NCBI GenBank assembly: GCA_030704615.1
Contig: CM060734.1
Span: 13,268,001 to 13,332,000, forward strand
Reading direction: 5' to 3'
Source: Takakia lepidozioides
Taxonomy: Eukaryota; Plantae; Bryophyta
Length of the DNA stretch: 64,000 nt
The position numbers and the translations under genes are program-made. Positions 15,851 through 61,569 of the stretch are shown one piece after another. The notes under the pieces are model-generated. The model searched no databases. It saw nothing but the letters and a program-made list of their open reading frames with translations, and had not been told where the DNA came from. Each line of letters begins with the position of its first letter. Within the stretch, counting starts at the first letter, position 1.

Positions 15851-16679
15851 GGGGGCGAGGTGGAGCCGCCCAGAGATGATGAGGTGGCCAGGCACAAGGT
15901 GCAGGCTAAGGACAAGCTCAACATGGCCAAGGACGTGGAGGTCAGGGTGTTGACCAAGGCATGGCCAACCGGCTTCAGCAGCTAGAGTAGAGGCTCGCTG
16001 CCATGGCTACAACTCAGGTGGTACCGGCTCCAAGGCCGGATGGTCCACCTCCGGCTCCTGAGGGAGGAGATATGGGAGGCATGGGATTCATGTGCGGGGT
16101 AGCACTACCACCAGTGCAAGTGGAGTCGGCGGCGGCAGTGACCCGAGGAGCAGCACGAGTTCCTGAGCCACGAGGTGCAGAGGTGGAGTTGGATCCACAG
16201 CGTGGGGAAGCAAGCCGTCAGGCGAGGCTTCCTCAATCATTCACATTGGCGGAGACAGTGTCGACGTCATCCATGGCACCTAGTTCTCGCCCGATTGTTA
16301 CCGAGGCGGAGGTTACTATGTCATTGGGGAGAGCTACATGGGCAACACCACTACCTAGTGTTGCCAAAGCTACGGCAGCTAGTGTCTGCTGGGAGCGGCC
16401 ACATCTTGTGTGCCAGGCTCCATTGTTCTCGGCTACCATAATTGCGACGCAGGGGGTAAGACCAGCTGAGGTGTTCAGGCTGGCAGCTACACTCTGTGAG
16501 AGTGGGGAGGTTACTTCATCTTCTGCGGAGATAGTGGGAGGTGTAGTGCCGGAGGGATCCTCGGATTTGAGGGTCAAGACTGCCACGGCGGCACCATGGC
16601 AAGTTGCAACTGTCAGGTTGATGGAGCTGTCAGCTAGGCCAGCCATTGAGCGCGCCATGGTGACACCTGGAGTTGTCAT

Positions 16680-17050
16680 GGTAGACAACCAGGATGACAT
16701 TTTCTGTTTGAGTGTACCAGCAGGCAAGAGGTACCGGCCACTACGGGTCTTGTTGGACTCGGGGCTCAGCCATTGATGTTGGGCAGAGCTGCTATTATAG
16801 GCTTGGCCTCACGGAGGCGGATATGGAGCCTTGTCATTTCTAGATACAGACGTCTCTGGGAGGATTGAGCAGGCTCGGGCATGACACGGCGTGAGTTGGC
16901 TATCAGACTACGGCCGGATCACCCTATAGATGACTCAGTAATGTGAGCCAAGGCCATTGTGACAGACGCGGTCTCATACGATGTCCTAGTTGGTGGGGCA
17001 GTGTGGTACCCCATGGGCTTCACCCTGGATTTTTGGGAGGAGTCAGCTTC
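16680..17050 (+). pseudogene. Aspartic protease domain (copy 1)
   Basis: RVLLDSG active-site motif at ~16744 and YDVLVG at ~16977. Confidence 0.7.
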
Positions 17051-17439
17051 CTATAGGCTGGATGGCAGTCAGGGAAGGCCAGCGTGTGTCAGCTCCTGTG
17101 ATGTTTCATAGGAGGAGTTGCGGTTGCCCAGCGGGGCAAGATGCCGACACTAGCAACATTCACAGCTGCAGTGACTTGGCCTGGATAGTTGCTAGAAGGG
17201 CAACACCATTCAGAGGATGACACACCTCCAGAGCATGATGACATGTATGGTTGGCGGAGTTGCCTGCCATGGTTGCTCAGACTCCAGTTGGGGCACGAGC
17301 AAGGATTTGCAGCACGGGTTGCTGATCGACGGGTGCAACAAGCCTGGGTGGAGGCTTTTGTACCCTCAGGAGAGGAGAGAGTGCGGGGATTGCACCAGGA
17401 CCACCTCAGTTGTCTCCATTGGACACCACACCTATTTTG

Positions 17440-18410
17440 TGGGCAGTATCCGGATGAAGGCTTTGCCTTCTGGACTTGTTTGGTGGGATCAGCCCGGATT
17501 GGCTGCTGTGCTACAGTAGGTGTACGAGTTCGATGTTACTTATGTGGCGAGGGATGAGATGTACGACGCGTCTCACTTCACCATGTTTGCCCAGTTAATA
17601 CACAGTACCCTGAGTTGTTGCCGGTGTGCTGCGTGATTTCGTGGATACCAGCAGACATTTCCTTGCTGGGGGCGCAAGATTTGGAGCGGGTTGGCTCCAT
17701 CCACTTGGTATGGCAGGTTGGCCTTGCCAAGGGCATTCATCACCGGGCATGGCAATGGATTGCGAGACTCGAGGTCGGGTCTGTTTTGGGAGATGGTGCG
17801 GGTTTTTGCGCCACTTACAGCTTCATCAGCTGTTCTCTCCGGCATACTCTTGCGAATGCCACTGAGGGCGATTCTCGGCCAGGGTGATGGCCAGTTGCAT
17901 CAAGTCCGGTCGTTGGCTTGGGTGAAGCAGTTGTTGGATGTGGAGTGTAGCTGCAGGGGGGTCACGGGCTCATCGTCCATGGCTATGTGGACTACCTTGA
18001 TGCAACCCGCACTGCTTAAGCATGCATTTGATGGGGTACAGCGGCGCACACACCTCAAGTGGATAACAGTTGGACACAGAGAGGCAGTCTCAGCGTGTGA
18101 GACACGATGACCGTTTGCCTTTGGCAGTGGTCAACAAGGTGGGTCAACCACAAACAACATTACCTACACTGCTCAGCTTCCTAGGATCGCATGCCTTTCC
18201 GGATAGTGGACCTAGCCTCCTGTGGGATGCTCAGTTGCAGCAGTTAGTGGAGCCTAATGCTGACGAGCGTGAGCGGGCAATGGGTTTTACCATTGGTACC
18301 ACAGCGGTGCCGTCTCTTTCTGAGGCATCACGTCGTCAGGTGTTAGGGCAAGCAATGGATCTCAATTGCTTGACCTGGATTATCAGCTTGGCTATGGCTG
18401 AGCAACGCAA
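17440..18410 (+). pseudogene. DNMT3-like C5 cytosine methyltransferase domain inside pol (copy 1, frameshifted)
   Basis: LLDLFGGI (motif I), GWPCQG (IV), GLRDSRSGLFWEM, a degenerate VI, ERERAMGF (IX) and RRQVLGQAM (X). Confidence 0.85.
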
Positions 18411-18859
18411 AGTGCGGAGTATACTTCCCTTGATGGTCTCTCTGCCTACCGAGACGGTACAGGCAGTGAGTGGGGGCAAGTAGGTGAGGACCACGGGGTG
18501 CAGGCATCCATGGCACACGTGGGAGGTGCTCGAGGTTCAGAGGGAGTTGGCAGCCAAGGCGGCGGTGATGGATGATGTTGGGGATTTTTTCTCGGTGAGG
18601 AAGTCCTCAAGGATGAGATGATGGGGCAGGATGATGCCTCCTTGATGATCAGCAGGGAGTACTACTCAAGAGGTTGCAACATAGCAACCACTGGACGCAT
18701 CCTCTACCTCTCAGCCCACTGGACTTAAGGTTGTAGTTACAGAGGACAATTGGGAGCCTGACATTGGACCCATTGTCACCGATGATAGAGAGACGTAACA
18801 GTGGTTTCCTGAGGGCTTACAGGAATTGCTTTGCCTTCAGTTTGAAGGACTTGGAGCAG

Positions 18860-20170
18860 TAAGTGTCAAGAGATCTGTTTGAGTTGGCCACTTACACGCC
18901 AATCTTTCGGAGACCCTATAGATACAGTGACATGGAGAGGTCTTTGATTCAGATGAGGACTCAGATCTCTGGGAGGCAGGTTTGGTGGAGCTCTCTTGGT
19001 GGAGAGTATGCTTCAGCCACAATGATGCCAGCTAAAAGGATGTCTATGGCAATTGGACGGAGACGTATGTGTGGTGATTACCGGCCTGTAAATCGTCAGA
19101 CTAAGTCCGATAAGTATGCCATGCCTACACTGGAGGAGATCTTTGATGCCATTGGGCATGCTAAGGTCTTTAACACTTTTGATTTACGATCCGAATATCA
19201 CCAGTTGTCGATCAAGGAGGCGGACAAGCGAAGGACGACATTCTGGGGGATCAATGAGCACGACAAGGATTGCCTATAGCAGTGGCGAGTCTTACCATTT
19301 GGCTTAAGAACGCTCCTGCAGAGTTTCATAGGAGTCATGGATAGGATTCTAGCATGGTGGACTTTGCTCGGTGCTACATAGATGACATCATCATCTTTAG
19401 TGCTACGGTGGAGGAGCATGAGAGACAAATCTTCAGGTGGATTGGAGCGCTTGAGAGCGCATGGATTGAAGTTGCATCCGGGGAAGTGTAATTTTTTCCA
19501 CACCAGATTGAGTATCTGGGTCACATGATATATCCTGGAGGATTGGGGGTACAACAGACTAAGGTAGAGGCTATTGCACAAATTCCACGCCCCCCGGATG
19601 TGAGCCGAGTTCGAGCTTTCATGGGGTTAGCAAACTACTATAGACGGTTTGTCAAGGGATTTAGTGCTATCGCAAAGGCTCTAACCAAGCTGACAAGGTG
19701 GACCAGGAGTGGCAGTGGGAAGATGAGCAGGAACAAGCTTTTCCAAGAGCTCAGGCGAGGTTTCCTCGGCTCCTATCCTGAGACGACCTATCAGGGGGCA
19801 TCCCTTTCAGCTGCATACGGATTGGAGCATGCTGGGACTTGGAGCGGTGCTCACACAGGTGGATGATGATGGAAGAGAGTTCGTAGTGGCTTATGCTAGC
19901 CCGCTCGAACAACGCTGAAGAGGCTAAGTACAGCTTATATGAGGGAGAGTGCTTAGCTGTAGTGTTGGCCGTGGGCACACTTCAAGTGGTTATCTTATGA
20001 CAATCTTTTCAACCCTTGTCACGGATCACACACCACTCAATGGTTGATGGAGTCAGACAAGCTTACGGGGAAGCTTGCACGGTGGGCACTCATACTCTAG
20101 GAGTATGACTTTCAGGTTTGTGCATCGACCGGGTTTGGTCACGGGATGCGGATGGATTGAGTCGCATCCT
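18860..20170 (+). pseudogene. pol: Reverse transcriptase and RNase H (copy 1)
   Basis: RMCGDYRPVN, FDLRSEYHQ, YIDDIIIFS, RAFMGLANYYRRFV, LHTDWS and YEGECLAV. Confidence 0.9.
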
Positions 20171-20529
20171 GCACGAGCCAGCAGGATGACACTGAAGCTC
20201 AGTGGCATGTGAGACGGATGAGGAGATGGTGCCACATCGCATGTTGTTTGTGTATCTTGGCAGCGGGAGGTCAGATTGGACCTACAACAGGGATGACTAT
20301 AGACGTATTTTGAGGACCCTGAGGCTAGGATCGAGCCAGGTTGTGCCAGAGATATAATGAGGATTCGGCTGTGTTGGACTACCTCCGTACTGGAGACACG
20401 ACAACCACTGTGACTGCCAAGGAGAGGGATCCGATCCTGCAATGAGCAAGAGGTTCAAGTGGGAGGGGATACACCTACTCCGAGTGTAGGAGGATGGTCG
20501 GGTGAGGATTGTGCCTCACCCAATACAGC

Positions 20530-21735
20530 GTGCACGGCTAGTGCGGCATACCCATTAGGAGTTGGGGACATTTTGGAAGTGCGACGCACTCACAGTTTAC
20601 TGTCAGGGGGTAGTATTGGTGGCGTGGTATGCGTACAGAGGTGCAACAGTCGGTGGCTAGGTGCATAATGTGTGACAAGGTGCGTGCTTCAATCATGGGG
20701 GATTGGGCTACAGGTGGAGTCTTGACTTCGCAGGACCGTTGCCACTGACTAAATAACACCACCACAAATATGTGTTGGTGATGGTGAGCACTTCTCCAAG
20801 TGGATTGAGTTGGTTCCATTGCCTGACAAGGCTAGTGAGGGGGCTGCGTATGCATTCTTGGATCGTGTGCTTAGCCAATTCGGTGCTCCAGCTGAGGTAC
20901 TCACGGACTAAGGGAGAGAGTTCTTGGGGGAGTTTCAGGTTTTGTGTGATAAAGCCTTGATAGACCACCGCACCACTTCTCGGGATCATCCTGAGGCCGA
21001 TGGCTTGGCAGAGAGAGTTGTTCAGACGGTGAAGAGGGGTTTGCGCAAGTATGGCTTGCAGAAGGGACACCTAGGAGATTAGGATCTTCAGGTGCTTTGG
21101 TTAGCCATGGGCTACAGGTTCGCCAAGCAAGCATCACTTGCTTCCTTCTCACCATATTTCCTTCTCTTTGGCCAAGAGCCGGATTTGCATGCTGCCATTC
21201 GTAGGGACACTGCTTAAGTTCTTAACCTTGATGATCCGGACGTGTGGATACGTGCATGTGATCAGCGTGCAAAGTTGTTCAAGAAAGTCATGCCCATGGC
21301 TTTTGAGAACCTTGCCATTGCACAACACCGTGACACGTTGAGGTATGCCACTATACGTGGTGGAGGACATCGTCCTGGGGTTCGGAGGTTTAGCCCTGGT
21401 GACTATGTTTATTTGCAGCAGACTGCTCATACAACCCTGGATGTGATTGCAGGGCGTGTTATTCTGAGGGTTTGAGAGGTGTTGCCCTCACGAGTCCTGA
21501 TCCTAGAGGGTCGGGATGGCATAACTTGTGCGTAATTGTACGTCATGTCACCTTCCCAATGTCGATGGCAGTGGTACCTGAAGGTTTGAGGTGCATGCTC
21601 TGTGGGTCTGCCAAAGGGGCAGCCACCATGCTGGTGTGTGATCGATGCTTAGGAGGTTGGCACATGGGATGCTTGACACCACCTCTTGAGAAGGTTCCTG
21701 ATGGAGATTGGTTGTATCCACACTACTTGGAATAG
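20530..21735 (+). pseudogene. DDE integrase with C-terminal PHD finger (copy 1)
   Basis: WSLDFAGP, VLTD and ADGLAERVVQTVK. PHD CMLCGSAKGAATMLVCDRCLGGWHMGCLTPPLEKVPDGDW at ~21590-21730. Confidence 0.88.
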
Positions 21736-22959
21736 TGGCAGTGGACATGACTAGAGGCAGCTAACAAGACATGGGAGGCCAAGCTCATAGGAGTCAATAC
21801 ACGAGATCCCAGGCTCAAGTTCATAGGTTGCAAGACGGCGACTAACGATGGGGCAATTCTTGCACCCGACCTCTTGATCTATCGAGTTTGAGTGTAGTAG
21901 GGACAGTGGTGGAGGACTGAGGCTACAGTCACTATCACATCTTGTGGCTACCTGGACTTAGAGGGACCTAAGCACCAGCTAGGGGGGCGATTGTGTGGAC
22001 TAGTGACTGCCATAGTGGGCAGCATAGTGGCAGTCTAGTGGTTGGACTAGTGGTATACTAGTGTGTGGTATGCACATGTGTTGTGTGGTTTGGGACAGCG
22101 ATGTAGTTGTGTAGCGATATGTATGCGCACGATACATCTCTCCACTTATTGCAATCCCATCCAGGCACGGTGCACAAGGTTCTTGGTGACCACCTAGCCA
22201 ACACCACCCCTACCCCAGAACCCAGCACCACCATTGACAAATTTACCTTCCTCTCCCCAGACATACTCACTGCTACGCTAAAAGCCCTCACCCCTCTCCC
22301 GGGATTCTCCCCCCCACCCCCAAACCCATCACAGTTATCCACATCCCCTTTACCAGGCACAGCTCCATCTGCACGCCTCCACATCCCAAATATCTGCACT
22401 AGTTCCTTTACTATCACATCTTGGAACGTTGGCTACTTACTACTAGCATTCAGAGCCTCATCCATCTCCTAACAGACTTCACTCCCCCCCATATTATCAT
22501 GCTGCAAGAGACCAAATTGCACACACGTAACACTAATAGCTCTTACATCAATAAACTTCTCCCAGACTACTACCTATTATATGATAATCCCCTCACTGCC
22601 CCCACAATGTCTTCTTAGGAGATCAGCCCCGTACAAACCCACTAGGGGAGGCGTTGCCCTTGGCATCCTACGCTCCCACCACTCACCCAGCACCACCACA
22701 AAAATCACCTTGCCCATACATCTTAGGTCCCACCTCCAGATTGTCCACTTACACCCGTCAGCTCTCACTCCCATTTTACTAATTCACTTGTATATGCCCT
22801 CACACGATGAGGACCTGCCAATGATACCCGAACTCCTAAGCACCATATCCACTACTATTACCCACCTGACCACCAACAATACCATGTCATATTGGCAGGA
22901 GACTTCAACAGGGACATTGCACTTCTTGGCCATACCAACGAATATAATAGGTGAGAGGT

Positions 22960-44979: not shown

Positions 44980-45319
44980 TGTGCAAATTTTAAATTTTGC
45001 CACGTGGCGCAGCAAGAAGAGGCGCCGCCAAATAAATCAAAATAATAATAAATAAAATTAACAAAAATTAAAAAGAATGGAGTTTTAAATTGTGCCACAT
45101 GGCGCAGTGTGGCGCTCCGCAAAATTCTGCCACGTGGCTCAGCGCGGACAATCGCAGCCAGGAAATATATATATATATATATATTTAAAGAAATTAAAAA
45201 AAAACTATTTTTTATCGCTGGCGGCGCCCCGCGACTCCGCCACGTGGCTCAAAGCGGACAGGCGCGGCCCCAAAAGTTATCATTTATAAATTAATTATTT
45301 AAAAAACAAAAACAAAAAC

Positions 45320-47158
45320 CAAAACCAAAACGATTTTCTATCACTGGCACATGGCGGTTCCACGCGGCGGGACGCGGACAGGCACAGCCCACAAAAACAA
45401 TATAAATAAATAAATTTTAAAAAAAAACCAAAATAATTTTCTATCGCCGACGCATGGCGGCGCCGTCCGATCCCGCCAAGCTGCGAGATGTGGACAGGCC
45501 CCGCCCGAAAAAGGCCAAAAAAAATTAAAAAAATTAAAAAAACCCATGTGGCTCTGCCATGTGATTCTGCCACGTGGCGTGACGGGGACATGCGCCGCCA
45601 TATATACGAAGAAATCTTGGTTTGTGGATGGGACATTGCGTCCATAATGGTGCACACATGACATACCATTATGGTACTCCATAATTGTGTTTTCTCTAAA
45701 ATTAATAGTGGTCATTTTTTTTTGGTTCCTATGTAAGAGGGTCATCCCATATGCATGCTCATTTGCAACCGCCATGCAAACTTGGAGTGGAGAGCAAAAT
45801 GGAGTACTGGCGCGAACGTCAATAACAAGTGTGCTTTCAGGTTAGTGTTGGGGGTGTTGCGTACGCAACAACCTGTAATTTGCATTGTGGATTTTTATTG
45901 TTTTGTGTTATGTCATTATACGTTATTTCAATAAGGAGAATATAAAAAAGAAAGAAAGAGCATCGTCGAACATATGGGTGTAGCATGCGCAACACCCCTA
46001 GTAAAATTAAAAAATTAATAAGAGTATAAGAGTAGTTATAATTTATAATTTTAAAAAAAAAAAAAAAAACCAAAACGATTTTCTATGATTGGCACATGGC
46101 GGTTCCACGCGGCGGGACGCATACAGGTGCCGCCCGAAAAAGACAAAAACAAAACAAATAAACAAACAAACTGCGCCACATGGCGCGACGAGGACAGACG
46201 CCGCCATATATATGAAAAAATCTTGGTTTGTGGATGGGACGTTGGATGCGTCCATAATGGTGCACACATGACATATCATTATGGTGCGTCCATTATGGTG
46301 CTCCATAATTGTGTTTTTTCTATAATTTATAGTGGTCATTCTTTTTTGGTTCCTATATAAGAGGGTCACTCCATATGTATGCTCATTTGCAACCGCTGTC
46401 CAAACTTGGAGTGGAGAGCAAACTGGAGTACCGGCGCGAACGTCAACAATAAGTGTGCTTTCAGGTTAGTGTGGGGGTGTTGCGTACGCAACAGCCTGTA
46501 ATTTGCATTGTGGATTTTTGTTATTTTGTGTTATGTCGTTATACGTTATTGCAATAAGGAGAATATAAAAAAGAAAGAAAGAGCATCGTCGAACATATGG
46601 GTGTAGCATGCGCAACACCCCTAGTAAAATGAAAAATTAATAAGAGTATAAGAGTAGTTATAATTAATTAATTGTTATTATTTTAAAAAAAAACCCAAAA
46701 CGATTTTCTATCACTGGCACATGGCAGTTCCACGCGGCGAGGAGTGGCGCCGCCCGAAAAAGGTATTTTAAAAAATTATTATTAATATATTTATTTAAAA
46801 ATTATTTATTTAAAAAAAAAACATGTGGCTGCGCCACGTGATTCTGCCACGTGGCGAGACGGGGACAGGCGCCGCCATATATATGAAAAAATCTTGGTTT
46901 GTGGATGGGACGTTGGTTGCGTCCATTATGGTACACACATGACATAGCACTATGGTGCGTCCATTATGGTGCTCCATAATTGTGTTTTTTCTATAATTAA
47001 TAGTGGTCATTCTTTTTTGGTTCATATGTAATAGGGTCACTCCATATGTATGCTCATTTGCAACATCCGTCCAAACTTGGAGTGGAGAGCAAACTGGAGT
47101 ACTGGCATGAACGTCAACAACAAGTGTGTTTTTCATGTTAGTGTGGGGGTGTTGCGTA
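45320..47158 (+). repeat. Tandem array of three ~620-750 bp units; the third unit resumes at 60963-61110
   Basis: AAATCTTGGTTTGTGGATGGGAC at ~45612, 46218 and 46888. GTGTTGCGTACGCAACA at ~45854 and 46476, and split at 47158/60959. Confidence 0.9.
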
Positions 47159-47957
47159 TGTCGTGTACCTAAGCATCGTGCCACAACATACATCGTTGTC
47201 CACCACACAATCTAAGCACACAATCCTAGATTACCACAATGATAATGAAAGTGAACATAATTGAAACCCTCCACTCAAGAATCCACTCAATCACATAAAC
47301 TAAGTCAAGCCAAGGGCACCCTTGCTAAGGGAATCCACCCTACAAAGCCCCCACCACACTCTCTCTCTCAATACCTAGAGCTATGGAGGTGAGAGAGGCT
47401 CATGGAGGCTCAACTACAAGAAGATGAGCCTCCTCCATCCTCACAAGCGGAAAACCTATCCCATGTCCCAAGTGAGGCTGGACACCTCACTTGGCATGTG
47501 AGACCAAAGGAAGTCCCAACACACAAAATATAAATATAAATATATAAAATGTCTTAATTAACGAAAAGTAGGTAATTCTAGATAACCATGACTAAAACCA
47601 TGACAGCTGTCGTGCACCTAAGCATCGTGCCACAACATACATCGTTGTCCACCTCACAATATAAGCACACAATCCTAGAAAGTTATACCACAATCGCCCC
47701 CCTAGCTGGTGATTAGGTCCTTCTAACACCGGATAGCTGACAAGTATCCATCCCAATAAGATCATCGCGTGGTCATCAATCACCCCCAAGTCCCAGTATC
47801 TGAAGGCAATAGATCAAGAGGCCGGGTGCAAAAGTAGCCCTATCGTTACTCGCCTTCCTGCAATCCATGGCTTTAATTGGGTGTCCATGGCATTGAACTC
47901 CCGTTAGCTAGACCTTGGATCACTTGTCAACCTCACCACTGTCATGCCCCACTACCT

Positions 47958-48892
47958 CTATCCAAGGCATCATGGACACAACCATTCTCCACTATGAACC
48001 TCCTCAAGTGGCGGTGTCAAACATCCTATGTGTCACCCCCCTTGAGCATTTGTCACACACCAACATGGTCGCGGCACCACCAGCATGCCCACATAGCATG
48101 CAACGCAACCCTGCAGGTACCACTGCAAGGTTGGGATCTATCCTCCTATCCACATGTGGAAGGTGACATGACGCACAATTGCGTACATGGTCCTTCCATA
48201 CCATGCCATTTCGACCCTCCAGAATCAACACTCCTAAAGGCAACACCTCCCGGACCCTTAGAATCACACGACCTGCTGTGACATCCAAGGTCGTAGGCGT
48301 TGTCTGCTGCAGATACACATAGTCCCCAGGATGGAAACGCCGAACACCTCGCCGTTATCCCCCTCCACGTATAGTGACATACCTCAATGTGTCTCAGTGT
48401 TGGGCAATAGCAAGGTTCTCAAAAGCCATAGGCATGACTCTCTTGAACAACTCTGTCTGTTGGGCACCTGCTTGTGTCCACACATCATCAAGGTTGAGGA
48501 CTACTGTAGTCTCCCTGCGAATAGATGCAGGCAAATCTGGCTCTCGGCCAAAGAGAAGGAAATAAGGCGAGAACGAGGCAAGTGATGCTTGCTTGCTAAA
48601 CCTGTAGCCCATGACCAACCAAGGTAGCTGAAGGTCCCAATCTCCCAAGTGTCCCTTCTGCAAGCCATACTTGTGCAAGCCTCGCTTGACTATTTGTACA
48701 ACCCTCTCGGCCAAGCCATCAGCCTCGGGATGATCCCGAGAAGTAGTGCGGTGATCTATCAAGGCTTGCTCACACAAAGCCTGAAACTCCCCCAATAACT
48801 CTCTCCATTTGTCCGTGAGTACGTCGGCTGGAGTACCAAATTGGCTAAGCACTCGATCTAAGAATGCATACGCAGCCCCCTCACTTGCCTTG
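47958..48892 (-). pseudogene. Integrase core/C-terminus and PHD finger of copy 2 (N-terminal part at 55842-56170)
   Basis: HEELGHFG...CMVC...WSLDFAGP...LPDK joins ASEGAAYAFLDRV...VLTD...ADGLAERVVQ across the nested element. PHD begins CMLCGHAGGAATMLVCDKC. Confidence 0.88.
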
Positions 48893-51800
48893 TGTCGCGG
48901 CCCTTTGCCTTGAGGGCAGGGGGTCGGGACACATGAGGGCTGCCCCTGTGGTGGGGGGCAGCGGCAGCGATAGGTATGGGGGGCTGAAGCACCCTTGAGT
49001 GCCCAAGGCACTCAAGGAGGCGGAGGCGCTCACTAGGTGGAGCCCCGCACACCGGGTTGCGGTGGAGGTGGCTCCACAAGGGTGGTGGTTTAGTGGGACT
49101 TAGTGGGGTGGCATAGGACTCACCATGGGGGTGGAGACCTCGAGGTGGGAGTCGTGGGGAGTCTTGGGACTCATCACGGTCCATTGGGGCCGCGGTGAGT
49201 GGGCCAAGACTCACCGCGACTCACCACCGGGAGTCGAGGGTTTTCGTGGTGGTTCGCCATAAAATGGCATGGCTGGTTATGAAACCCCCGCGGACAGCTA
49301 CAGAAGTATATATAGGGAGTAGTAACCCCGAGAACGGTGCAAGCCCGTTGGTGACCAAAAACTAGTGAGAAGCGAGCGAGCGGAAAGCGACCAAAGAGTG
49401 GGGAGCTGTTCCGGACTGCCATCTACCAAAGGGAATTCTCCTAGTCCCAAATAGGTGGAGGGTTTAGAGGGAAGCGGAAGGGGACCGTTATGTCCCGGTG
49501 AGCAGCCGAAACTCCAAGTTGGCCCGGCGGCCAGGTTGGGAGTCAGGCGCGCGCATCAAAGCGAGTAACTATGACTTGAAGGGGAGTTTACCGAATGAGG
49601 TGTGCGACACTTGGTATCAGAGCTTAGAGTTCAGTACGCGATCGTCCTTGGGATTGGCCTCATCATGGGGTCGGGCAAGCCGAAGCGAAAGCGGAACGGC
49701 CCAAAAGATGATGACCCGGTGAGCCCGATGGGGGCGACGTGTCACCGAGGCGGCCGTTTGAGGAAGCGATTAATGTTTCCGAAAACGAGGCCGCTCAGGA
49801 GCGGGAGGAATCCGAGGAGTCGGAGCCCGAGGAATCTTGAGAGCTCCGACAAACCAAGAGATGCCTCCCATGCCGGCAGCCTTTTGGGAAGGGTTGTTGG
49901 CGCAGTTTGGCGGGACGTTGAAAGACGTGTTGAAGGCGGCTAATGCCACTTCCACCAAGGCAAAGTTTAAGGTGAAGCCTAAGGAACCCGGCACCTTCGA
50001 GGGCGTTCGAAACCGGAAGGCACTCAACACCTGGCTCCTGGAGCTAGAGCAGTACTTCCGGGCGGCCAAGTTGAGTGACGAGGATCGGGTGGAAGTGGCT
50101 CCACCTATTTGAGGGGCTATGCTCAACAATGGTGGCAGAAACGCCTTCACGACCGAGGCCCAAGCCCGGAAACCTTGAACTGGAGTGGTTCAAGGAATTG
50201 ATGAAGAGACAGTTTGTGCCCCTCAACGCGTCCTGGCTTGCCCGGGACAAGATGAGGAATTTGAAGCAAACAGATGACATTCGGGGGTATGTCCAGGCTT
50301 TCAATGTGCTGTTGCTCGAAGTCGCGGACATGGCAGAACCAGAAATGGTCTTCAACTTTGTGGCGGGACTGGCCCCATGGGCTAGGCGGAAGTTGGAGGA
50401 GAAGCCACCCAAGACTTTGAACGAGGCAATTGAGAGAGCTGAATGTTTCTCGGATGTCCCTAGGGGTGAGAGACAAGGCCGTACGGAGCTGAACCACAAG
50501 AAGACCCGGCGGGAAGGTGACTCCTCCGACCGGAAAAGAAGTGGGATAGGCCACGCGGCGAAAATGGCACGTGGAAATCGAAGGGAGGCCTTCACACGTC
50601 AAAGGCGGCACCCGGTGCTTCGAAAGGAAAAGCGGGTGGAGCGCTTATGGCGGACAGAAGGCGACCTTTGATGGAGTGTGTTTCAATTGCGGGGAGCCCG
50701 GGCACATGGCCAAGAAGTGCACGAAGCCCCGGCAATTGAACATGACTCGGGCGACCACGGAGCTGTCGGAAGATACCATCAGTCGCTTGGTGGAAGCGGT
50801 GGTCGCCAGGACTTGCAAGGTAGGCAAATTTTCTTTGTGAGTTGTATCAGGAAACTGGCGCCTTACGAAAAGGGAGTCAGTTGTTCGTGGATGGGATAAT
50901 ATCCGGAACTAATGTGTCGTTGTTGGTGGACACAGGAGCGTCGCACTCCTTCATGACGCGGCGGCGCGAAAGTTGGGACTCCCGACAAGTGACGTGGGGG
51001 CCTCTATTGAGGTGCGCTCTGCCAAAGGAGAACCTCAGTTGGCGACAAGGTTGGCGTTTGATGTTCCTCTTCAACTGGGGAGTTGGGAGGGACGTGAGAA
51101 CTTCACTATCTGCGAGATCGATGGAGTGGATCTCATTTTGGGATGACCTTTTTGAGCAAATCCGGAGCGGTCATAGATGGCCGCAAGAGAGTAGTCACGC
51201 TGCCATGTGGGAATGGTGGCGAGGTTTTACGAGTGTCGGAAACGCCCAAATCCGTGGGAGGGCGAATAAACCTTCTATCAGCAAAGGAGTGGGCCGTGGA
51301 GGAGACACACGAGTCCCAGTTTTTGCTTTACATTAGAGAAGTGAAAGGAGAAGGCGATGGGGAGCCGAGCCCAGATTGGATCAAGGGGATTTTGGAGAAA
51401 TACCAGGATGTGATGCCGGAGGATTTACCAAGCGGCTTGCCACCGCGAAGAGGAGTTGACCACAAAATTGAGGTGATACCGGGATCGGAACCGCCTGCCA
51501 AGGCGCCCTACCGGTTGAGCCACAAAGAGTTGGTCGAGCTGAAGACTCAGCTCAAAGATCTAATGTCAAAGGGGTACATCCGGCCGAGTAAGTCACCTTA
51601 CGAGCCCCGGTGCTATTTGCAGACAAGAAGGATGGGACGCTGCGGATGTGTGTCGATTACAGGGCTCTGAATAAGGTGACTATCAAAAACCGGTACCCTT
51701 TGCCAAGGATCGACGACCTCTTCGATCGGTTGGCAGGAGCGAAGTATTTCAGCCGGATCGACTTGCGCTCCGGCTATCACCAAATTTCGGGTGGCGGAAG

Positions 51801-54800
51801 GAGATGAGGAGAAGACCGCGTGCAGGACAAGGTATGGTTCATATGAGTTCTTGGTGATGCCTTTTGGGCTCACCAATGCACCAGCGACATTTAGCACGCT
51901 GATGAACAGCCTTTTCCAGGAGTGGTTGGATGACTTTGTGATCGTGTACATCGACGACATCTTGGTGTACTCGAAAACAAAGGAGGAGCACCTGGAGCAC
52001 CTCAAAAGGGTGTTCCAAAAATTGCGAGAAGGGAAGCTGTATGCCAAAGCTTCAAAGTGCGAATTCGGGGTCACAAAAGTGGAGTTCTTGGGCATGTGAT
52101 TACACAGGATGGGATCAAAATGGATGACAGAAAGGTGAGGGCGATCTTGGACTGGGAGCCTCCGACTTCGGTCCCGGGAGTGCGATCCTTCCTAGGACTC
52201 GCCTCCTATTACCGGAAGTATGTGAGAAATTTCGCCAAGATCGCGGGGCCGCTGTCGGACCTTCTGTGTAAATCCAAAGTCTGGGTATGGAACACATTTT
52301 GTGGCCAAGCTTTTGCTGAATTGAAGCAGCGGATGACGGAAGCTCCAGTCTTAAAAATCCCGGAGTTCGATCGTCCGTTTGAGATTCATACAGATGCATC
52401 GGACTTCGCAATTGGGGGTGTACTTATGCAAGATGGACGTCCAGTGGCTTACGAAAGTAAGAAACTGAATGAAGTGGAGCGACGGTGGCCGACGCACGAA
52501 AAAGAGATGAAGGCGGTGGTACATTGCCTTGAACTCTGGCGCCACTATGTTGGTTCCAACCCAGTGAAGGTGTTCACGGACAATGTCACGTGAAAGTATT
52601 TTGCCACGCAGCCCAAGTTGTCCCCAAAACAACTTAGGTGGCAAGATACTTTGGCAGTGTTCGACGTGGATATCCAGTACAAACCGGGACGGGACAATGT
52701 GGTGGCCGATGCTTTAAGTAGAAAGCAGCAGCTCTTGTTGGTGTACAAGGGCGAGACGGCGCTCCAAAGGAAGATCCGGAAGGCTTGCCGGAAGGATGAG
52801 CTGGCAAAGTGCGTGATGCAGACTTGAGAATGGGGGTTAAATCGCAGTTCCACTTGCAAAACGGACTGCTCCGGTATAAGCAAAAACGTCTCTATGTGCC
52901 AAAGGGAGGGATCAGGGATAGTCTCTTGAGAGAATGCCATGATAGCCCGCTTGCGGGCCACGGTGGAGCCAAGCGCACTGCGGCACTCTTGAAGAAAGAG
53001 TATTTCTGGCCCAAACTGAGGGAGGAGGCAGAGGAGTATGTCAAGACATGCACCACATGCCAACAAAACCGGAGCGAGTATAAAAAGCAAGCGGGGCTGT
53101 TACAACCCTTGCCGATTCCAGAGGGGACTTGGGAAAGCGTCTCGATGGATTTCATGACTGCTATGCCGCTGTCAAAAGGATTCGATGCAATCATGGTGGT
53201 GGTAGATAGGTTCAGTAAAATGGCCCATTTCATCCCCACCAAGGAGACGGCAACGGCGCAGGAGACAGGGCGACTTTACTTCGCCCACGTCTTAAAGCAT
53301 CATGGAGTCCCGAAGGATATTGTCTCGGACCGCGATCCAAAGTTTACGAGTAAATTCTGGAGAGCACTTTGGAAGAAGATGGGGACGAGGCTGAAGATGA
53401 GCACCGCCTTCCGACCTACGACGGACGGCCAAACGGAAAGAGTGAATTCCGTAGTGAAGCAATTCTTGCGGAATTACGTGTCGGCAGACCAATCAGACTG
53501 GATGGAACACTTAGACGCGGCAGAGTTCTGTTATAATAACACAGAACACTCCGCGACGGGAGTTTCCCCTTTTGTGTTGGTCTATGGAAAAGCACCTCTG
53601 GTGCCGACAAGTTGGGCCGCCCAGGACGTTGAGGAACCGGCAGTAGCGGCGGTACTGGAAGAACGCGAGCGTTTGTTGAAGCTCGCAAAGTACAACATTG
53701 CCAAAGCTAGGAAACGGTATGAAAGGCAGGCGAATCGGAAGCGGAGGGAAGTGAAGTTTGAGGCAGGCACAGAGGTCTGGTTGAACATCAAGAATTTTCG
53801 ACTACCTCCGGAAATGAGTCCGAAGTTCGTACCTCCGTATGCGGGTCCCTTTCGCATTCGGAGGTTATGAATGAGGATGTGTATGAATTGGAGCTGCCAG
53901 CAAACAGCAAGGTGCACCCAGTATTCCATGTCTCCCTTTTGAAGCCTTACTTCAAAGATGAAGCACGTCCGAATCGGCAGCAAGTGTTGCGTCCGCCACC
54001 TATGCTGTTGGATCATGAAAATGAACCTCAATGAACCCGAGTACGAGGTGGAGGCAATACTTAAGTCGAGGAGGTTCAAGAACCGAGAAATGGAGTATCT
54101 CGTCAAATGGAAGGGCTATCATCTTGTGGAGGCATCTTGGGTGCGTGCCTCAGAAATGGGAAACGCATCCGAGGCAGTTGCAGCGTTCGAAGGGCGACCT
54201 CAAAAGCGGAAGAAGCGTTGATGGGGACATCAACCTTGGAGCGTGGGGGAGGAAATGCATGCTTAGCCCGGTTTAGCTAGCTCAGGAATCCGATTGCAAA
54301 AACTTGTATTGTACAAAAATTTGTGATAAAGGAAATGGGTTCCAAATATTGTGCGTCCTATTGTGTTTGGAATGGTGATGCATGGTGTGGTTGGCTGGTG
54401 TGTAGAATGCATGCTAGCTTACAAAGTGGGAGAGGTAAATTGGGTTAATCGTGTGTTTGCGCAGTGCCGAAATCGGGTGACTCCCATCCAAGGGGCAAGG
54501 AAACTTGCGCCTTATTTGGGAGTTCAAGTGCTAGTGCGCACCTGGCGCGTGCGCGTACTATAACTGCGCTACCGAGGGGGTTGCCTTGTAGTGCGGGCTA
54601 ACGCGGAAGCTACGTGCTTCCGTTCACGTACTATAATCGTGTAGCCTCGGGACGAAGTCGTAGTGCGGCTTCGGCGTGTTCCCGTACCTCAGGCCAGCAT
54701 TCCAAGGCGGACCCAATTGTAGTGATTGGGGCGCACGGTTGGTTCAAGGTTATCTTCCTAGTCAAAGAGGGTTTCAGGTGAACCCTTGCTCAAGGTGATG

Positions 54801-55841
54801 CCAAAAGCGGCATCATGAGCGATCGCAAGCAATGTTGTTGCAGTAAGGCGATTCGATCCTCGGGGAGGATCGTTCCTTGGCCTTGAAGTAGGCCAAGAAG
54901 AGTGCACTGGGAGGAGCTGGAGAGGCTCCACCCTTGGCCGGGACTTGGAGGAAGTCGGCCGAACTAGCTAGTGGAGAGTGGAGTCAAGTGTGGGGTTTGG
55001 TTCTTTGCCATGGGACGCCATGGTACGGAAACAAACTCCTTGATGTGGGACGCCACAACTTGGATGTTCGTTTCTACAAAATGGACAAGTCGATGAGGAC
55101 ATCGACTCCCTGTTGGTAGGGGTGTGTGTCGCGGCCCTTTGCCTTGAGGGCAGGGGGTCGGGACACATGAGGGGCTGCCCCTGTGGTGGGGCAGCGGCGG
55201 CGATAGGTATGGGGCTGAAGCACCCTTGAGTGCCCAAGGCACTCAAGGAGGCGGAGGCGCTCACTAGGTGGAGCCCCGCACACCGGGTTGCGGGGAGGTG
55301 GCTCCACAAGGGTGGTGGTAGCTTAGTGGGACTTAGTGGGGGTGGCATAGGACTCACCATGGGGTGGAGACCTCGAGGTGGGAGTCGTGGGGAGTCTTGG
55401 GACTCATCACGGTCCATTGGGGCCGCGGTGAGTGGGCCAAGACTCACCGCGACTCACCACCGGGAGTCGAGGGTTTCGTGGTGGTTCGCCATAAAATGGC
55501 ATGGCTGGTATGAAACCCCGCGGACAGCTACAGAAGTATATATAGGGAGTAGTAACCCCGAGAACGGTGCAAGCCCGTTGGTGACCAAAAACTAGTGAGT
55601 AAGCGAGCGAGCCGGAAAGCGACCAAAGAGTGGGGAGCTGTTCCGGACTGCCATCTACCAAAGGGAATTCTCCTAGTCCCAAATAGGTGGAGGGTTTAGA
55701 GGGAAGCGGAAGGGGACCGTTATGTCCCGGTGAGCAGCCGAAACTCCAAGTTGGCCCGGCGGCCAGGTTGGGAGTCAGGCGCGCGCATCAAAGCGAGTAA
55801 CTATGACTTGAAGGGAGTTTACCGAATCGAGGTGTGCGACA
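48893..55841 (+). mobile_element. Full-length chromovirus (Galadriel-like Ty3/gypsy) nested in the integrase of copy 2
   Basis: LTRs 48893-49609 and 55127-55841 (TGTCGC...GCGACA), TSD CCTTG, iMet PBS TGGTATCAGAGC at 49612-49623, PPT at ~55115-55124. Confidence 0.96.
49660..54221 (+). pseudogene. gag-pol: Chromovirus gag-pol (gag, CCHC, PR, RT, RH, INT, chromodomain), frameshifted as assembled
   Basis: [53 protein letters not shown] and chromodomain YEVEAIL...EYLVKWKGY...SW. Confidence 0.93.
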
Positions 55842-56867
55842 CCTTGTCAGGCAATGCCACCAGCTCAATCCATTTGGAGAAATGTTCCACCATCACCAAC
55901 ACATACTTGTTATGGCGAATCGTTAGTGGCAATGGGCCTGCGAAGTCAAGACTCCAACGATAGCCCAAACCCATAATGGGTAAAGGATGCAATTGTGGAG
56001 TAGGTGCATTGAAAGAAGCCCGCACTCTATCACACACCATGCACTTTGCCACTAACTGTTGCACATCCGTGTGCATGCTCCGCCACCAATACTGTCTTTG
56101 CAACAAACTATGAGTGCGCCGCACTCCAAAATGTCCCAACTCCTCATGGCCATGGCGTACCAATCACGCTCGTTGTGTTGGATGAGGCACAATCTTCACT
56201 CGTCCATCCTCCCGTACTCGGAGTAGGTGAGTCCCCTCCCACTTAAACCTCTTGGCTCGTTGTAGGATCCGATCTCTCTCCTTAGCAGTCACACTGGCTG
56301 CTGTCTCTCCAGAAGGTAGGCCAACACTGCTGCATCTTCATGTATATCCTTAGCACCACCAAGCTCCTCACTGATCTCTGGATCGTCATGCACACTATCT
56401 CTATAACCAATCACATGGGATGGACCAGCTTGAGCTCCCATTGCTAGAATGCACAAAAAGGCAGATGCGTGCCATCTTGATACCATCTCCTCGTCCGTCT
56501 CACCATGCCAACGAGCTCCTGTATCATCAAGCTCACTTGTGCATGGATTGCGACTCAATCCATCCGCATCCTGATTGACTATTCCGACTCGATGCACCAC
56601 CTAGAAGTCGTACTCTTGAAGCATAAGTGCCCACCGTGCAAGCTTCCATGTAAGCTTGTCTGACTCCATCAACCACTTCAATGATTGGTGATCCGTGACA
56701 AGGGTGAAGAGATTGTCATAGAGGTAGCATCATACTGCAGCTAGACACTCCCCTTCAGAGGAACTATACTTCGCCTCGGCATCATTGTTCGAGCGGCTAG
56801 CATATGGATGGAGCATAGCTCCAATCCCCAGCATACTCCAATCCATATGTAGCTGGCCCAAATGTAG

Positions 56868-57581
56868 ACGATCATCATATCGCACTCTCTGTGGTTGCCT
56901 CCCTTGGTCCAAAATGCCCTCAACCATGAGGTTGGGTGGCCGTTGAATGGAATCATAGGCTCTCTTGAGCAACTCTGGTGGTGCAAGATTGGTCCACCAT
57001 AACCTAGGCCTATGTGCCCGTGAACCCAATGCAGCTGCATCCAACAATACAGCTGGTCCAATCCATGACCGGATCTGATGCACACTGGCCATAACCCTGG
57101 CCCGAGAATCCCCCATGAGAGGAACATTCTCCAAGATATAGGCTAGAGGTTGCATTTGCCTCGTCTGCAAGTCACGCAACATTCTCAACATCTCCCAAAA
57201 CAAATGCGATCGTGCATCATGCAAACCATTACCATGACCTGCGGGAGAATATCCTTGGCAAGGCCACCCTCCTATCACCAAGTCAATGGGACCATGCCGA
57301 TCCAAATCCTCCGTCCCCAGTATGGTAATATCTGTTGGCAAGGTCTTTTGGTACCCTTGAATTGCTGAGAGAGGCAACAACTCAGGATACTGATGTGTGA
57401 GCAAGGCAACATGGCGCATGGAAACATGCCGAGCAATCTCATCGTTCTCCACATACAAGTACTTGCGTACTTTGATTCCTGTTTGCAACACTCCTGCAAG
57501 CCCAGTGCTCATGCCTCCAAACAGGTCTAGCAAACAAATGCCTGAGTCAGGTTGTTGCCAGATAATAGGCACTGTGTCCAA
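56868..57581 (-). CDS. DNMT3-like C5 methyltransferase domain, motifs I-VIII in one open frame (copy 2), truncated before motifs IX-X
   Basis: LLDLFGGMSTG, YVEND, DIT, DLVIGGWPCQG, RSHLFWEM, YILENV and AHRPRLWWTNL in ORF 56730-57581. Confidence 0.92.
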
Positions 57582-57719
57582 TGGAGCTAACTAAGGAGGT
57601 CCAGGTGATGTCACTGAACTCCCCTCACCTACCGATGGAAAGGTCTCCTGCCATGCTTGCTGCACACATTGGCTTGACACTTGCTGCAAATCCCCAACTG
57701 TACCCTACAGTGAGCTATG

Positions 57720-58058
57720 CACAGGAACATGAGGAAGCAATTCAGCCTTGTGCTGGTGTCGCCGCTGCCCTTGTGCCTCTAGTGATGGAGACATAGTTAG
57801 GTGACCAATACTCTCGCCGCTCCTCAATCTCCACCGCATGTCCCCGCCTAAATTCATGGTAATCATCCATGGGCTGCCCCTCAAGGTGCTGGAATAGCCC
57901 CTTCCACGCCATAAAGGGCGTAAACAGTTGTGGATTGCGCATTTGCTGCAAATCATAGCAACTATCAAGCTCCTGTATGAAATCATCAAGCTCGATGGTG
58001 CCCATAGCTTCAGAGTACCGACGTGGCCCCTTGGTAGCTCCATACATTTCTTCCATCG
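57720..58058 (-). pseudogene. gag: gag N-terminus of copy 2
   Basis: MEEMYGATKGPRRYS...ELDDFIQE, highly similar to copy 1 at 14751. Confidence 0.8.
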
Positions 58059-58659
58059 TATACCACAACAATGGCACGGAAATGGCTTGCACTCTCAGCG
58101 AGAATCCTCCTAACTCTGAGTCTGAACCTTCCTCAGAAGGCACTGAAGGTGAAGGTGGCCTAAACCGCACACCTCGTCTTGTATACCCACTAGTATCGCT
58201 GGTGCTCGTACCGGCACTCTCCTCAGCAACTGGTGGCACCTCCGTGATGAAAACTCACAACCACACCTGTTGTAAACCTGTATCTAATCCCCCTTTCCAC
58301 AAGGTAACCGGGTAGAGAACATGTTGCAGCTTATGGCTTAGGCTACTAGGTTCATAACATAAACCTGCACCTGCACCTGCATCCACCGCAATCACTCCTA
58401 TGGTCTGCTGGTCGTCAACCCAGCCTCACCATAAGAGAATAATGATGGTCTGACTGGTTATCACCCCAGCCTCACCACCGACAGCACGCTCTAGGATTGA
58501 CCGGTGATCAAATCCGGACCAACCTCCTATGAAAACAAACGCCCACACAAAACTAACATGGCGCACAGTCAAGCATGCACGTGTGTATGTGTAATGACTC
58601 CATATGCAACGTGCATGCCGAATTCGGGAGGGAAACAAAATTCATTGGACCGCTCCAAA

Positions 58660-59075
58660 CAGTACACCAAGGCCCCAAGAGCCTGCCAAATCTTGGCCCT
58701 CAAGGACCCCAAATAGTCCTTCAACAAGTCGCCAAAGACTCCTCAAGCTCGCCAAATATCGGCCTCCAAGGACCCCAAACAGCCCTCCAAACAGCCTTCC
58801 AAAGGCTCCAAAAACTTGCCAAATATTGGCCTTCAAAGACCCCAAATGGTCCTCCACATAGCCTTCCAAAGGCTCCAAAAACTTGCCAAAACTTGCCAAA
58901 ACTTGGCCTTCAAGGACCGCAAATAGTCCTCCAAACAATGATCCAAATACCTCTTCAAGAGCTCTTCAAAGCGCCTTACCAAAGTTCCTCAGAGTGTCTT
59001 CCAAAAGCTCCTCAAATGACCCCAAAGATCCCCCAAATAATTCTTCAAAAGGCCCTTGAAAATCCTCCAAAAGCC
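58660..59075 (+). repeat. Degenerate minisatellite (CCAAAGGCTCCAAAAACTTGCCAAA / CAAGGACCCCAAA) in the leader of copy 2
   Basis: Repeated blocks visible in the DNA and in ORF 58575-59138 (LGPQGPQIVLQ / LGLQGPQIVLQ). Confidence 0.8.
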
Positions 59076-61569
59076 CTATATTGTCTTTATATGTCACTAT
59101 GTTCCCAGCCTATAGTGACCGTTCCTACACCTTGGTGACCGTTCCCACACTTGGGTGACTGTTCCCATGAACCTAGGGTTTCATGTGCATCTCATGCTAG
59201 GGTTTGTGCATCCCATGCTAGGGTTTGTGCATTCCAAGCTAGGGTTTGGGCTTCCTTGCTTCATGCTTACTCTCCTCAAGCATCCATGACTTCTATGAGA
59301 TACCAAGGCAAACTACCTTGATCTTCTTCACCTCAAGCCACAACCAAGCTTGATTCCATCTCACCTAGCAATGCATTTGCCACACAACAAGCTTCACTTC
59401 TCTTTGGAGCTCAAGAATCAAGCTTTTTACCTCATTTGACAAGCAACCAAGTCTTGCACTCATTCATGTGGTCATCTTTGGCCATCCACATGCATGCTCC
59501 ATTCTTGGCTTCTATGTGTTGCTTCTCCAAACATCAATACATCTCCATCTCATGCAAAGAGGAAGATTCAAGTCCCTTCACTTGCTAGCTCAAGAGTCGT
59601 GCTCTCCTCAAGCTTAAGGCTGAAACCCCAACTCAAACATGTGCTCTACAAGTGCTTTTCCTTCACCTAAGTGGAAACCAGCCCTTTTCTTTCCTTCTTG
59701 CTCTCCATGCCTTGAAAATAGAAGCCTCAATGGGCTGAAAACATGCTCCATATAAGTATCACCTCATACACAAAGGAATGAACTTGTTCCCTTCACCTTC
59801 TAGCTCTCCTCAAGCTTGAAGTTGGAAGCCGCACTTGGAAAGCATGCTCCACACATGCGCCACTTGCTTGGTCAACCACTTGCTTCACCAAGAGCAATCC
59901 AAGAACTCAGAGAACTAGCAAAAGCACTCCCTTCTAGCGCCTTAGCTTGCTTTTTTGTCAACCAAATGAAACCCCACTTGGCTTCATTTCACCATGGATA
60001 AAACAACCACTTCTTAGCTTCTCTTGAGCTACTAAATGCTCCTCAAGCTATCCTTGTTGTACTCCTTCTATGGTGTTTCTAACCCAAGCATGTGCCGCTC
60101 TTTGGCTTCCCTTTCACACCATGAACAACTAGAGCTTGCTCTTGAAACCCTAGTGTCTATCTTCTCCACATGCAAGACGCTTCTCTTGTGATGCAAGAGC
60201 TCTTTTCCAAGCTCTCAAACCCTTGGTGCACAATAATGCTTCTACAAACCCTTAATGCATTCTTTTCACCATAGAAGTCACTTCCTTGGCAAATGGTTGT
60301 CACAACACTTGAGATACAAGAGATGGCGTTCCTTCTTCTCAAACTTTCAAACCTTTTGCTTCCACACACACAAGACTTTCTTCTACAGTACTTGCAAACT
60401 CTTGTAACTCAATAGCTCTCTCATTGAGCTCTCCACCTCCTTGATGCAATGCAAACACACTCTTCCTTGCAACACCTTGCAAGCCTTGTGAGATACCTGA
60501 GCTTTCCCTAGCTCTCTCACTCCTTGGTGTACACCAACACAAGTGTAAAACTATCCTTACACTCCGCACTCGCAAGCATAAGGTCATCTTCTTGTAGTGA
60601 TAATGAAAGTGAACATAATGGAAATCCTCCACTCATGAATCCACTCAATCACATAAACTAAGTCAAACCAAGGGCACCCTTGCTAAGGGAATCCACCCTA
60701 CAAAACCCCCACCACACTCCCTCTCAATACCTAGAGCTATGGAAGTGAGAGAGGCTCATGGAGGCTCAACTACAAGAAGATGAGCCTCCTCCATCCTCAT
60801 GGAAAACCTATCCCCATGTCCCAAGTGAGGCTCGACACCTCACTTGGCATGTGAGACCAAAGGAAGTCCCAACACACAAAATATAAATATAAATATCTAA
60901 AATGTCATAGTTAACTAGAAGTAGGTAATTCTAGATAACCATGACTAAAACCATGACACGTATACAACACCCTGCAGTTTGCATTGTGGATTTCTATTGT
61001 TTTGTGTTATGTCATTGTATGTTATTGCAATTAGGAGAATATAGAAAGGGAAGAAAGAGCATTGTCGATCATATGGGTGTAGCATGCGCAACACCCCTTA
61101 TCAAATGAAAAATTAATAATAATACATGTTGACTAAGAGGGTGTTGCGTACGCAACCACCTCTTTAGGGTTTAGGGTTTAAGATTTGGACATATTCATGA
61201 AATGTAAGATATTTCATCATGTTCATTAGGGTGTTGCGTACGCTACATTCTCATCTTCTCCTTGAAAATGAGAAAATAAGTTGATAGAAAGATATCGACG
61301 TCAAGGAATATAGGGGTGTTGCGTACGCTACCCCCTCATCTTCTACTTGTAGATAATATATGTAGAAGTGTTATTCGAAACATACCTTGAGCTATGTTGT
61401 CCATGAACTCCATGAGTTTGAGAGGTCGAACCGCTACAGTAATCCATGTGAAATGAACTCAAATTGGAGGTGTAAGCCTCTTATACTGGTGGAATGTAGG
61501 TAGGTTGGTAGGTACTATTTGATAGGTTTGTACTTTTTGATAGGTAGGTTGGTATTACTTGGTAGATTT

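Follow-up and report, generated by a model that had tools for sequence, protein, structure and literature searches.

Where does the integrase of an LTR retrotransposon act when the ends of its inserted copies lie inside the LTR? This question is raised by E1, an element in the window (the whole 64-kb stretch of DNA analysed here), in which two repeat segments, A and B, meet at the perfect 10-bp palindrome GACAGCTGTC (47602-47611). On the minus strand, the GACA end of A (47611-47608) is followed by GC and then by the TGTC start of B (47605-47602); the 12-mer at 47601-47612, the coordinates under which the first-pass annotation listed the site, is not palindromic. Palindromy alone was dropped as evidence, being at chance level: the window holds 83 perfect palindromes of at least 10 bp, and the motif with one mismatch occurs twice against 2.3 expected. 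What goes beyond chance is (i) the position of the site, whose halves are the element termini, and (ii) its conservation in relatives. The halves had been read as the termini of integrated copies that have lost the central GC, and both points are borne out: E1 runs from TGTC at 60958 to GACA at 47159 (minus strand), a second element, E2, runs from TGTC at 11527 to GATA at 22134 (plus strand), and the copies end at the halves with the central 2 nt gone. With a probability of about 0.65, we interpret the palindrome as the likely attachment (att) site of the element's DDE integrase, the cDNA ends having probably been joined beforehand.

Layout and coding content of the elements

The features on which the argument draws are as follows.

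47155-47158, plus strand: E1 target-site duplication (TSD) CGTA; second copy at 60959-60962, empty sites at 45860 and 46483
47159-60958, minus strand: E1, long form (B-internal-PPT-A-GC-B/A), broken by a nested chromovirus
47159-47239, minus strand: terminal A copy of E1, ending in GACA, the element end
47234-47243, minus strand: E1 B/A junction ATCA-T-TGTGG, corresponding to two predicted cDNA ends joined; variable in relatives
47240-47605, minus strand: downstream B of E1 (TGTC...ATCA)
47602-47611, minus strand: att-like site GACA-GC-TGTC at the A/B join, in the downstream LTR of E1; conserved in 31 distinct sites
47608-47693, minus strand: A segment of E1 after the polypurine tract (PPT), from the predicted U3 start T-TGTGG to GACA
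47697-47703, minus strand: E1 PPT, AGGGGGG, immediately before A; position shared by relatives
48007-48891, minus strand: remaining E1 integrase core and C terminus with a PHD-like finger, in broken frames
48893-55841, plus strand: nested chromovirus with a full LTR pair, a TGGTATCAGAGC-type primer-binding site (PBS) and the 5-bp TSD CCTTG
55822-56163, minus strand: N-terminal part of the E1 integrase (H2C2 zinc domain and start of the core; PF17921, E=3.7e-15, and weak PF00665), split by the nested insertion
56733-57590, minus strand: C5 cytosine methylase domain within E1 pol (PF00145, E=1.4e-14)
60584-60597, minus strand: E1 PBS directly after B, not of the tRNA type (TGG)
60598-60958, minus strand: upstream B of E1, from TGTC (element start) to ATCA (predicted U5 end), 94% identical to the downstream B
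60770-60783, minus strand: putative E1 self-primer (predicted RNA 5' end), complementary to 60584-60597 at 14 of 14 positions
11527-22134, plus strand: E2, short form (B-internal-PPT-A), with the TSD CATC at 11523-11526 and 22135-22138
11673-11688, plus strand: predicted E2 self-primer, pairing with 11854-11869; the E2 PPT lies at 21981

Read from 60958 to 47159, E1 has the order B-internal-PPT-A-GC-B-T-A, with an A of 86 bp and a B of 366 bp meeting at the A/B join on the minus strand. This layout, the termini and the duplications are direct observations, and the E1 junctions and the 4-bp duplication are fixed independently of any motif by two unoccupied copies of the flanking repeat (45860-45863 and 46483-46486). 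The host sequence that supplies these empty sites is a degenerate tandem repeat of ~630 bp (45308-47158 and 60959-61119). E2 itself carries neither join (A-AC-B or B/A), and its A (21991-22134) is lengthened by short CTAGTG-type repeats. The nested chromovirus, which served as the in-window control for the textbook LTR layout, sits in the E1 integrase and has LTRs that are 97% identical, a chromodomain, and LTR tips that likewise read TGTC...GACA. Elsewhere in the window, a 762-bp inverted repeat (1482-2242 and 9763-10510; 94% identity) has outer tips of TGTC...GACA and no visible TSD; between its arms lie four ORFs without a Pfam match, one of them with zinc-knuckle-like motifs, and a weak integrase-like match falls at 5198-5356, inside the pair.

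E1 is a broken Ty3/gypsy element encoding PR, a C5 methylase, RT, RH, a DDE integrase and a PHD finger. The pol order PR-RT-RH-IN, with a DDE integrase, was established by Pfam searches of ORFs from three relatives (L026, L027 and L077) and by tblastn on the window. In E2, the C5 methylase lies within pol at ~17600-18400 (plus strand), and the PHD finger follows the integrase, as in E1 (PF00628, E=7e-8). Methylase matches occur in 43 of 80 loci (the best 80 of at least 541 stretches); many of the loci do not reach far enough upstream to include this domain. The best solved-structure match of the integrase core is Ty3 Gag-Pol (7q5b, E=2e-23), and identity to the integrase of the nested chromovirus is only 23-28%. 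Named relatives of the integrase come from liverworts, Sphagnum, Coleochaete and Tetrabaena; no relative was found in viral contigs among 110 pattern matches. Among the 58 homologs examined (P0001-P0058), all 51 that match the pattern have 34 residues between the second D and the E of the core, and the GPY/F motif is not visible in their alignment. The usual spacing in integrase cores is 35 residues.

Conservation of the internal site and of the termini

The relatives comprise the best 80 of at least 541 confirmed stretches and two added loci (L081 and L082), seven loci with identical flanks having been excluded as duplicates. Within the best 80, A continues into B in 32 (28 of them distinct) and into flanking DNA in 33 (one a solo copy), 2 lack a readable end, and an A match is missing from 13; four A ends were positioned by eye. 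The arms are separated by 2 nt in all 31 distinct sites (28 of 28 from the best 80 of at least 541, plus E1, L081 and L082), the spacer reading GC in 13, AC in 9, GT in 4, AT in 3, AA in 1 and TC in 1. The first-pass annotation had proposed checking both the palindrome and its spacer for conservation across subfamilies: the 2-nt spacer is constant and the arms are kept, whereas perfect palindromy of the 10-mer is confined to 10 of the 31 sites and is imperfect in 21. Each arm spans ~7 bp, as CA(C/T)GACA-nn-TGTCA(TG), and every A and T between -5 and +7 is invariant in all 29 sites counted. The site also contains CAG/CTG triplets. Changes within it are nearly all C>T or G>A, matching the expectation for methylation decay. 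At the first position of the spacer, G>A is present in 13 of 31 sites, more than the 0.19 that decay would give on a rough estimate (p=0.003), and the AC spacer is thus probably a real variant. The A segments of six families give no BLAST match to one another, and between families the integrase cores share 44-81% identity, yet the internal site is retained; this conservation, too, is observed directly.

Twenty elements could be read at both ends, namely 18 loci (from the best 80 of at least 541, plus L081 and L082) together with E1 and E2. Each of them starts and ends at the site halves, with TG...CA termini (one start, in L073, reads TC) and a 4-bp TSD that lies within the 4-6-bp range of Ty3/gypsy; the duplication is exact in 12, has at most one mismatch in 18 and is absent in 2 (L023 and L029), and an exact TSD of 3, 5, 6 or 7 bp was found in none of the 20. 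A canonical LTR layout is likewise found in 0 of 20, the tips being internal to the LTR that the PBS and PPT define. Together, these counts favor the first-pass proposal that integration would take place at an LTR-internal site of abutted ends rather than at the PPT/PBS-defined ends. Long forms number 9 and short forms 11; the mirror form, B/A-nn-B-internal-A, is absent against the 9 long forms (p=0.002), and B/A stands at the 5' end in 0 of 20.

The B/A junction varies by indels, whereas the att spacer is constant in length. Among 16 junctions of family ii, 7 carry an additional AT, 2 carry nothing, 2 carry ATT, 2 are of other kinds and 3 are deletions; by analogy, the B/A join appears to vary as an end-joined 2-LTR junction does. 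The terminal A resembles the internal A of the same element more than it resembles the other copies on average in 20 of 24 cases, but more than the most similar other copy in only 6 of 24, which makes the cis-versus-trans test weak; the upstream B beats the mean of the other copies in 7 of 8. In the young element L082, the two A copies show no difference over 106 bp (100% identity). Both L081 and L082, which are young and have a perfect site, lie in a genome labelled uncultured Synechococcales, and their presence in this bin likely reflects eukaryotic contamination. A 127-bp terminal overlap in L081 was not accepted as evidence for a circle, since repeat collapse gives the same overlap.

Scanning for the motif with a free spacer returned 35 matches at 2 nt, 32 at 5 nt and 4-8 at other lengths. 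Of the 5-nt matches, the two that were placed (L047 and L059) are not A/B joins but a subterminal repeat inside A, just before its end. Such ACGAC-motif repeats lie just inside the A ends of family ii (e.g., L047 and L059), and these, like the repeats in the A of E2, are possible integrase-binding subsites. A solo B/A copy, the analogue of a solo LTR, occupies 6131-6609 of L049 and is flanked by the 4-bp TSD CAAT.

Contigs from the window's own organism (4 runs, at most 2 samples) provided further copies. Among the matches listed, contigs with unrelated flanks stop exactly at 47608 (X1, 34 contigs, agreement 0.38; X3, 20 contigs, 0.41) and exactly at 47605 (X2, 17 contigs, 0.42), and other contigs run across the internal site and the B/A join. 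No mixed-flank contig ends at the canonical positions, 47693 or 47240, among the 24 matches listed (424 further unlisted), and no spacer variant occurs in contigs across the E1 site among the 40 matches listed (16 further unlisted). Aligned on E2, contigs of its subfamily lead from A back to B as GACA-AC-TGTC (X2 and X3), the best-supported junction of that subfamily among the matches listed; the B-to-A join, again among the matches listed, reads ATCA-T-TGTG in 15 contigs from 4 runs and has four variant joints.

Predicted priming, the proposed route and its rivals

In all families examined, a primer site lies directly after B and a PPT directly before A. A tRNA-type TGG after B is absent in 14 of 14 elements, and the 12-16 nt directly after B are complementary to a mid-B stretch, the pair covarying between families. 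In E1, the complement extends over 14 of 14 nt, against a mean of 6.1 and a maximum of 10 in shuffles; an exact complement of at least 12 nt is present in 8 of the 14 elements (shuffle means ~6, maxima 8-11), and the remaining six match over 5-10 nt, with E2 pairing through mismatches. Self-priming of the Tf1/Tcn1 type is therefore predicted in place of a tRNA PBS. Given the primer site after B and the PPT before A, reverse transcription is predicted to yield A-nn-B at both cDNA ends; the cDNA LTR defined by the PPT and the predicted self-priming site would be A-nn-B, and the inserted ends fall inside it.

The route that we propose would begin with an RNA that starts inside the upstream B and primes itself on the site just after B. 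Reverse transcription, judging from the PPT and primer positions, would give A-nn-B-internal-A-nn-B, whose two ends would then be joined imprecisely, as in a 2-LTR circle; the resulting B/A junction is observed, and its formation at this stage is our inference. The integrase would nick after CA on both strands at the site of the upstream LTR, the 2-nt 5' overhang would be lost, and insertion with a 4-bp stagger would produce B-internal-A-nn-B/A, the very form found in the genome. Among the forms observed, this one alone retains the terminal redundancy that another round would require; B-internal-A copies and solo B/A copies are likely dead-end products of 1-LTR circles, double cuts, or A-A or B-B recombination. 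The variable TSDs and the inherited spacer point to DDE chemistry at a pre-encoded site, and away from both a tyrosine recombinase and an excision junction of the IS3 type. The circle is less secure than the internal site, because a symmetric circle with two identical sites predicts a mirror permutation as common as the long form, and none was seen (0 versus 9). This asymmetry points either to a mark on the upstream site or to an integrase that works on linear DNA and cuts it back to the outermost arms; one idea is that methylation could help choose between the two att sites. Also counting against the mechanism, two MLV papers, by their titles, reportedly find junctions or internal att sites to be poor integration substrates.

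The strongest rival retains the same internal site and DDE integrase and dispenses with a free circle, the integrase acting on linear cDNA; we consider it possible, albeit distinctly less probable than end-joining beforehand. In this case, (i) trimming to the outermost arms would give B-internal-A, with the long form arising after an RT jump from the right end to the left end that recopies A, or (ii) insertion at the upstream site would be followed by host repair joining the two loose cDNA ends. Under the outermost-arm version, mirror forms should be missing and short forms frequent, as they are (0 and 11 of 20, respectively), and the junction indels are equally compatible with RT jumps or host end-joining. 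Extended linear cDNA, however, is a postulated intermediate, 1-LTR circles or recombination would also yield short forms, and the B/A junction retains remnants of the primer site and PPT. Such remnants are retained in retroviral 2-LTR junctions. Counting end-joining first and the linear route together, use of the internal site is highly probable.

Three further rivals were considered. That E1 is an ordinary LTR element, whose true LTR is an end-processed B/A (TGTC...GACA) and whose odd layout stems from later deletion, recombination or misassembly, would suit the textbook TG...CA ends, the solo B/A copy of L049 with its 4-bp TSD, and the TGTC...GACA tips of the nested canonical element. The primer site after B and the PPT before A, however, are the reverse of what a B/A LTR requires in all families examined, B/A is at the 5' end in 0 of 20, and the layout recurs in independent assemblies and contigs; we regard this explanation as improbable and largely refuted already. 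Still less probable is copy-out/paste-in or cut-and-paste DNA transposition, of IS3/IS30 or Ginger-like type, in which excision would have joined the element's own ends to create the site. The TGT...ACA ends, 4-bp TSD and gypsy-type integrase do resemble Ginger as described in PMC2836005, and circles of the IS3 and IS30 families are described as inserting through abutted ends. A flank-derived spacer, however, would vary freely, and 29 of 31 spacers are GC, AC, GT or AT (p about 1e-15 versus 0.25); this fixed set refutes the explanation. The arms are, moreover, 7 bp long and not 40-270-bp TIRs, and RT, RH, a PPT and a primer site are present, with A and B duplicated as RT would make them. The IS3/IS30 analogy drawn in the first-pass annotation survives for the abutted ends with a short spacer, and fails for the flank-derived origin of that spacer, which is inherited within the LTR. 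We give the least credence to circle integration by a tyrosine recombinase of the DIRS/PAT/Ngaro type, acting in cis or in trans, even though the split-repeat layout is the same (PMC5890265, Fig. 4c legend). DIRS1-type integration, as set out in PMC3266345, uses an identical 3-bp core and produces no TSD; in the present elements, the 4-bp TSDs vary between copies and the two central nucleotides disappear, and this variability of the TSDs refutes a DIRS-type origin. In addition, no tyrosine recombinase was detected in 44 proteins (42 ORFs of at least 110 aa from five elements, and two long polyproteins judged by their top families), and the rve integrase was present in the same 44.

Returning to the internal site with ends joined beforehand, we hold it somewhat better than an even bet that these elements represent a green-lineage LTR clade in which (i) the att site has moved from the cDNA ends into the LTR, (ii) end-joined 2-LTR-type DNA is the obligatory substrate, and (iii) some feature steers the integrase to the upstream of two identical sites. 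From its sequence features, this would be a new variant of Ty3/gypsy integration, the layout of which has been noted before and the site and route of which were not found in print; a full-text literature search, outside which lay Repbase Reports and subscription journals, retrieved no description of an LTR-internal att site in these elements.

Comparison with known systems

If this reading is true, these elements would provide a naturally occurring, high-copy example in which a retroviral-type integrase normally works at an internal site, and would bear on the old question of whether integration can start from end-joined (2-LTR) DNA. In textbook retroelements, such DNA is a dead end. A DIRS-like layout could then arise with DDE chemistry, and direct tests of the integrase could use the site as a defined substrate of 14-16 bp. 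The relatives of the clade come from liverworts, a moss, a charophyte and a chlorophyte, and programs that recognise elements by paired terminal LTRs, such as that of PMC6317226, would miss or misannotate this abundant group.

E1 and its relatives resemble canonical Ty3/gypsy elements (Metaviridae) in PR-RT-RH-IN order, DDE core, PPT, TG...CA ends and short TSD, and differ from them in lacking a full LTR at the 5' end, in having inserted ends inside the PPT/PBS-defined LTR, and in the 34-residue D-E spacing. The closest description is that of KnitGypsy-Dnmt3 of Klebsormidium nitens, for which the Fig. 4c legend of PMC5890265 gives DIRS-like repeats (A-coding-B-A-B) with Gypsy domains, and which is named, and only named, as streptophyte Gypsy-DNMT3 in bioRxiv 10.64898/2026.05.21.726589. 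A Gypsy pol with a C5 methylase and DIRS-like A-coding-B-A-B repeats are both present here as well. No protein named as Klebsormidium was among the integrase relatives returned, the likeness drawn here being one of domains and layout, and neither termini and TSD nor an internal site, the priming or the route of integration is described in the available portion of PMC5890265. The predicted self-priming is shared with Tcn1, among the Tf1/Sushi/Tcn1 self-priming elements (PMC6317226); unlike Tcn1 and the Tf1-Sushi chromoviruses, the present elements have a PHD finger instead of a C-terminal chromodomain.

Several other assignments were rejected. Phygy and Selgy of REXdb, according to PMC6317226, have a PBS for tRNA-Trp in Phygy and for tRNA-Ala in Selgy, lack additional domains and, in the case of Phygy, target NCGN; none of this is seen here, and only the 4-bp TSD length is shared. 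Ginger1/2 have 40-270-bp TIRs and no RT (PMC2836005), as opposed to 7-bp arms and an RT, and Troyka, an animal-only group with CG...CG ends and a 3-bp TSD (PMC12440569), matches on none of these points. Membership in the DIRS order (PAT/Ngaro) would call for a tyrosine recombinase gene, no TSD and a constant crossover core, which differs from what was found. PAT, TOC and Ngaro do share the A-coding-B-A-B layout and a proposed circular intermediate; theirs is a tyrosine recombinase, with DIRS1 lacking a TSD (PMC3266345), whereas here a DDE integrase accompanies variable 4-bp TSDs.

The copy-out/paste-in elements of the IS3, IS30, IS21 and IS256 families likewise combine a DDE enzyme with insertion via abutted ends across a short spacer, as would the present elements; their junction is rebuilt in each cycle from one end and the host DNA flanking the other, whereas here it is inherited through the RNA. 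A parallel in enzyme action is with retroviruses: in vitro, PFV integrase cleaves the 2-LTR junction to give 5'-AT overhangs (PMC1180852), and HIV-1 integrase cleaves the palindrome at its 2-LTR junction (PMC1905944). The integrase considered here would similarly act after CA at an internal palindrome, with the 2-nt spacer and 5' overhangs of PFV (PMC1180852). In foamy virus and HIV-1, however, it is the cDNA ends that make up the palindrome, and the provirus is colinear (PMC1180852, PMC1905944), whereas in these elements the palindrome is already encoded in the middle of the LTR, away from the end junction, and inserted copies are permuted.
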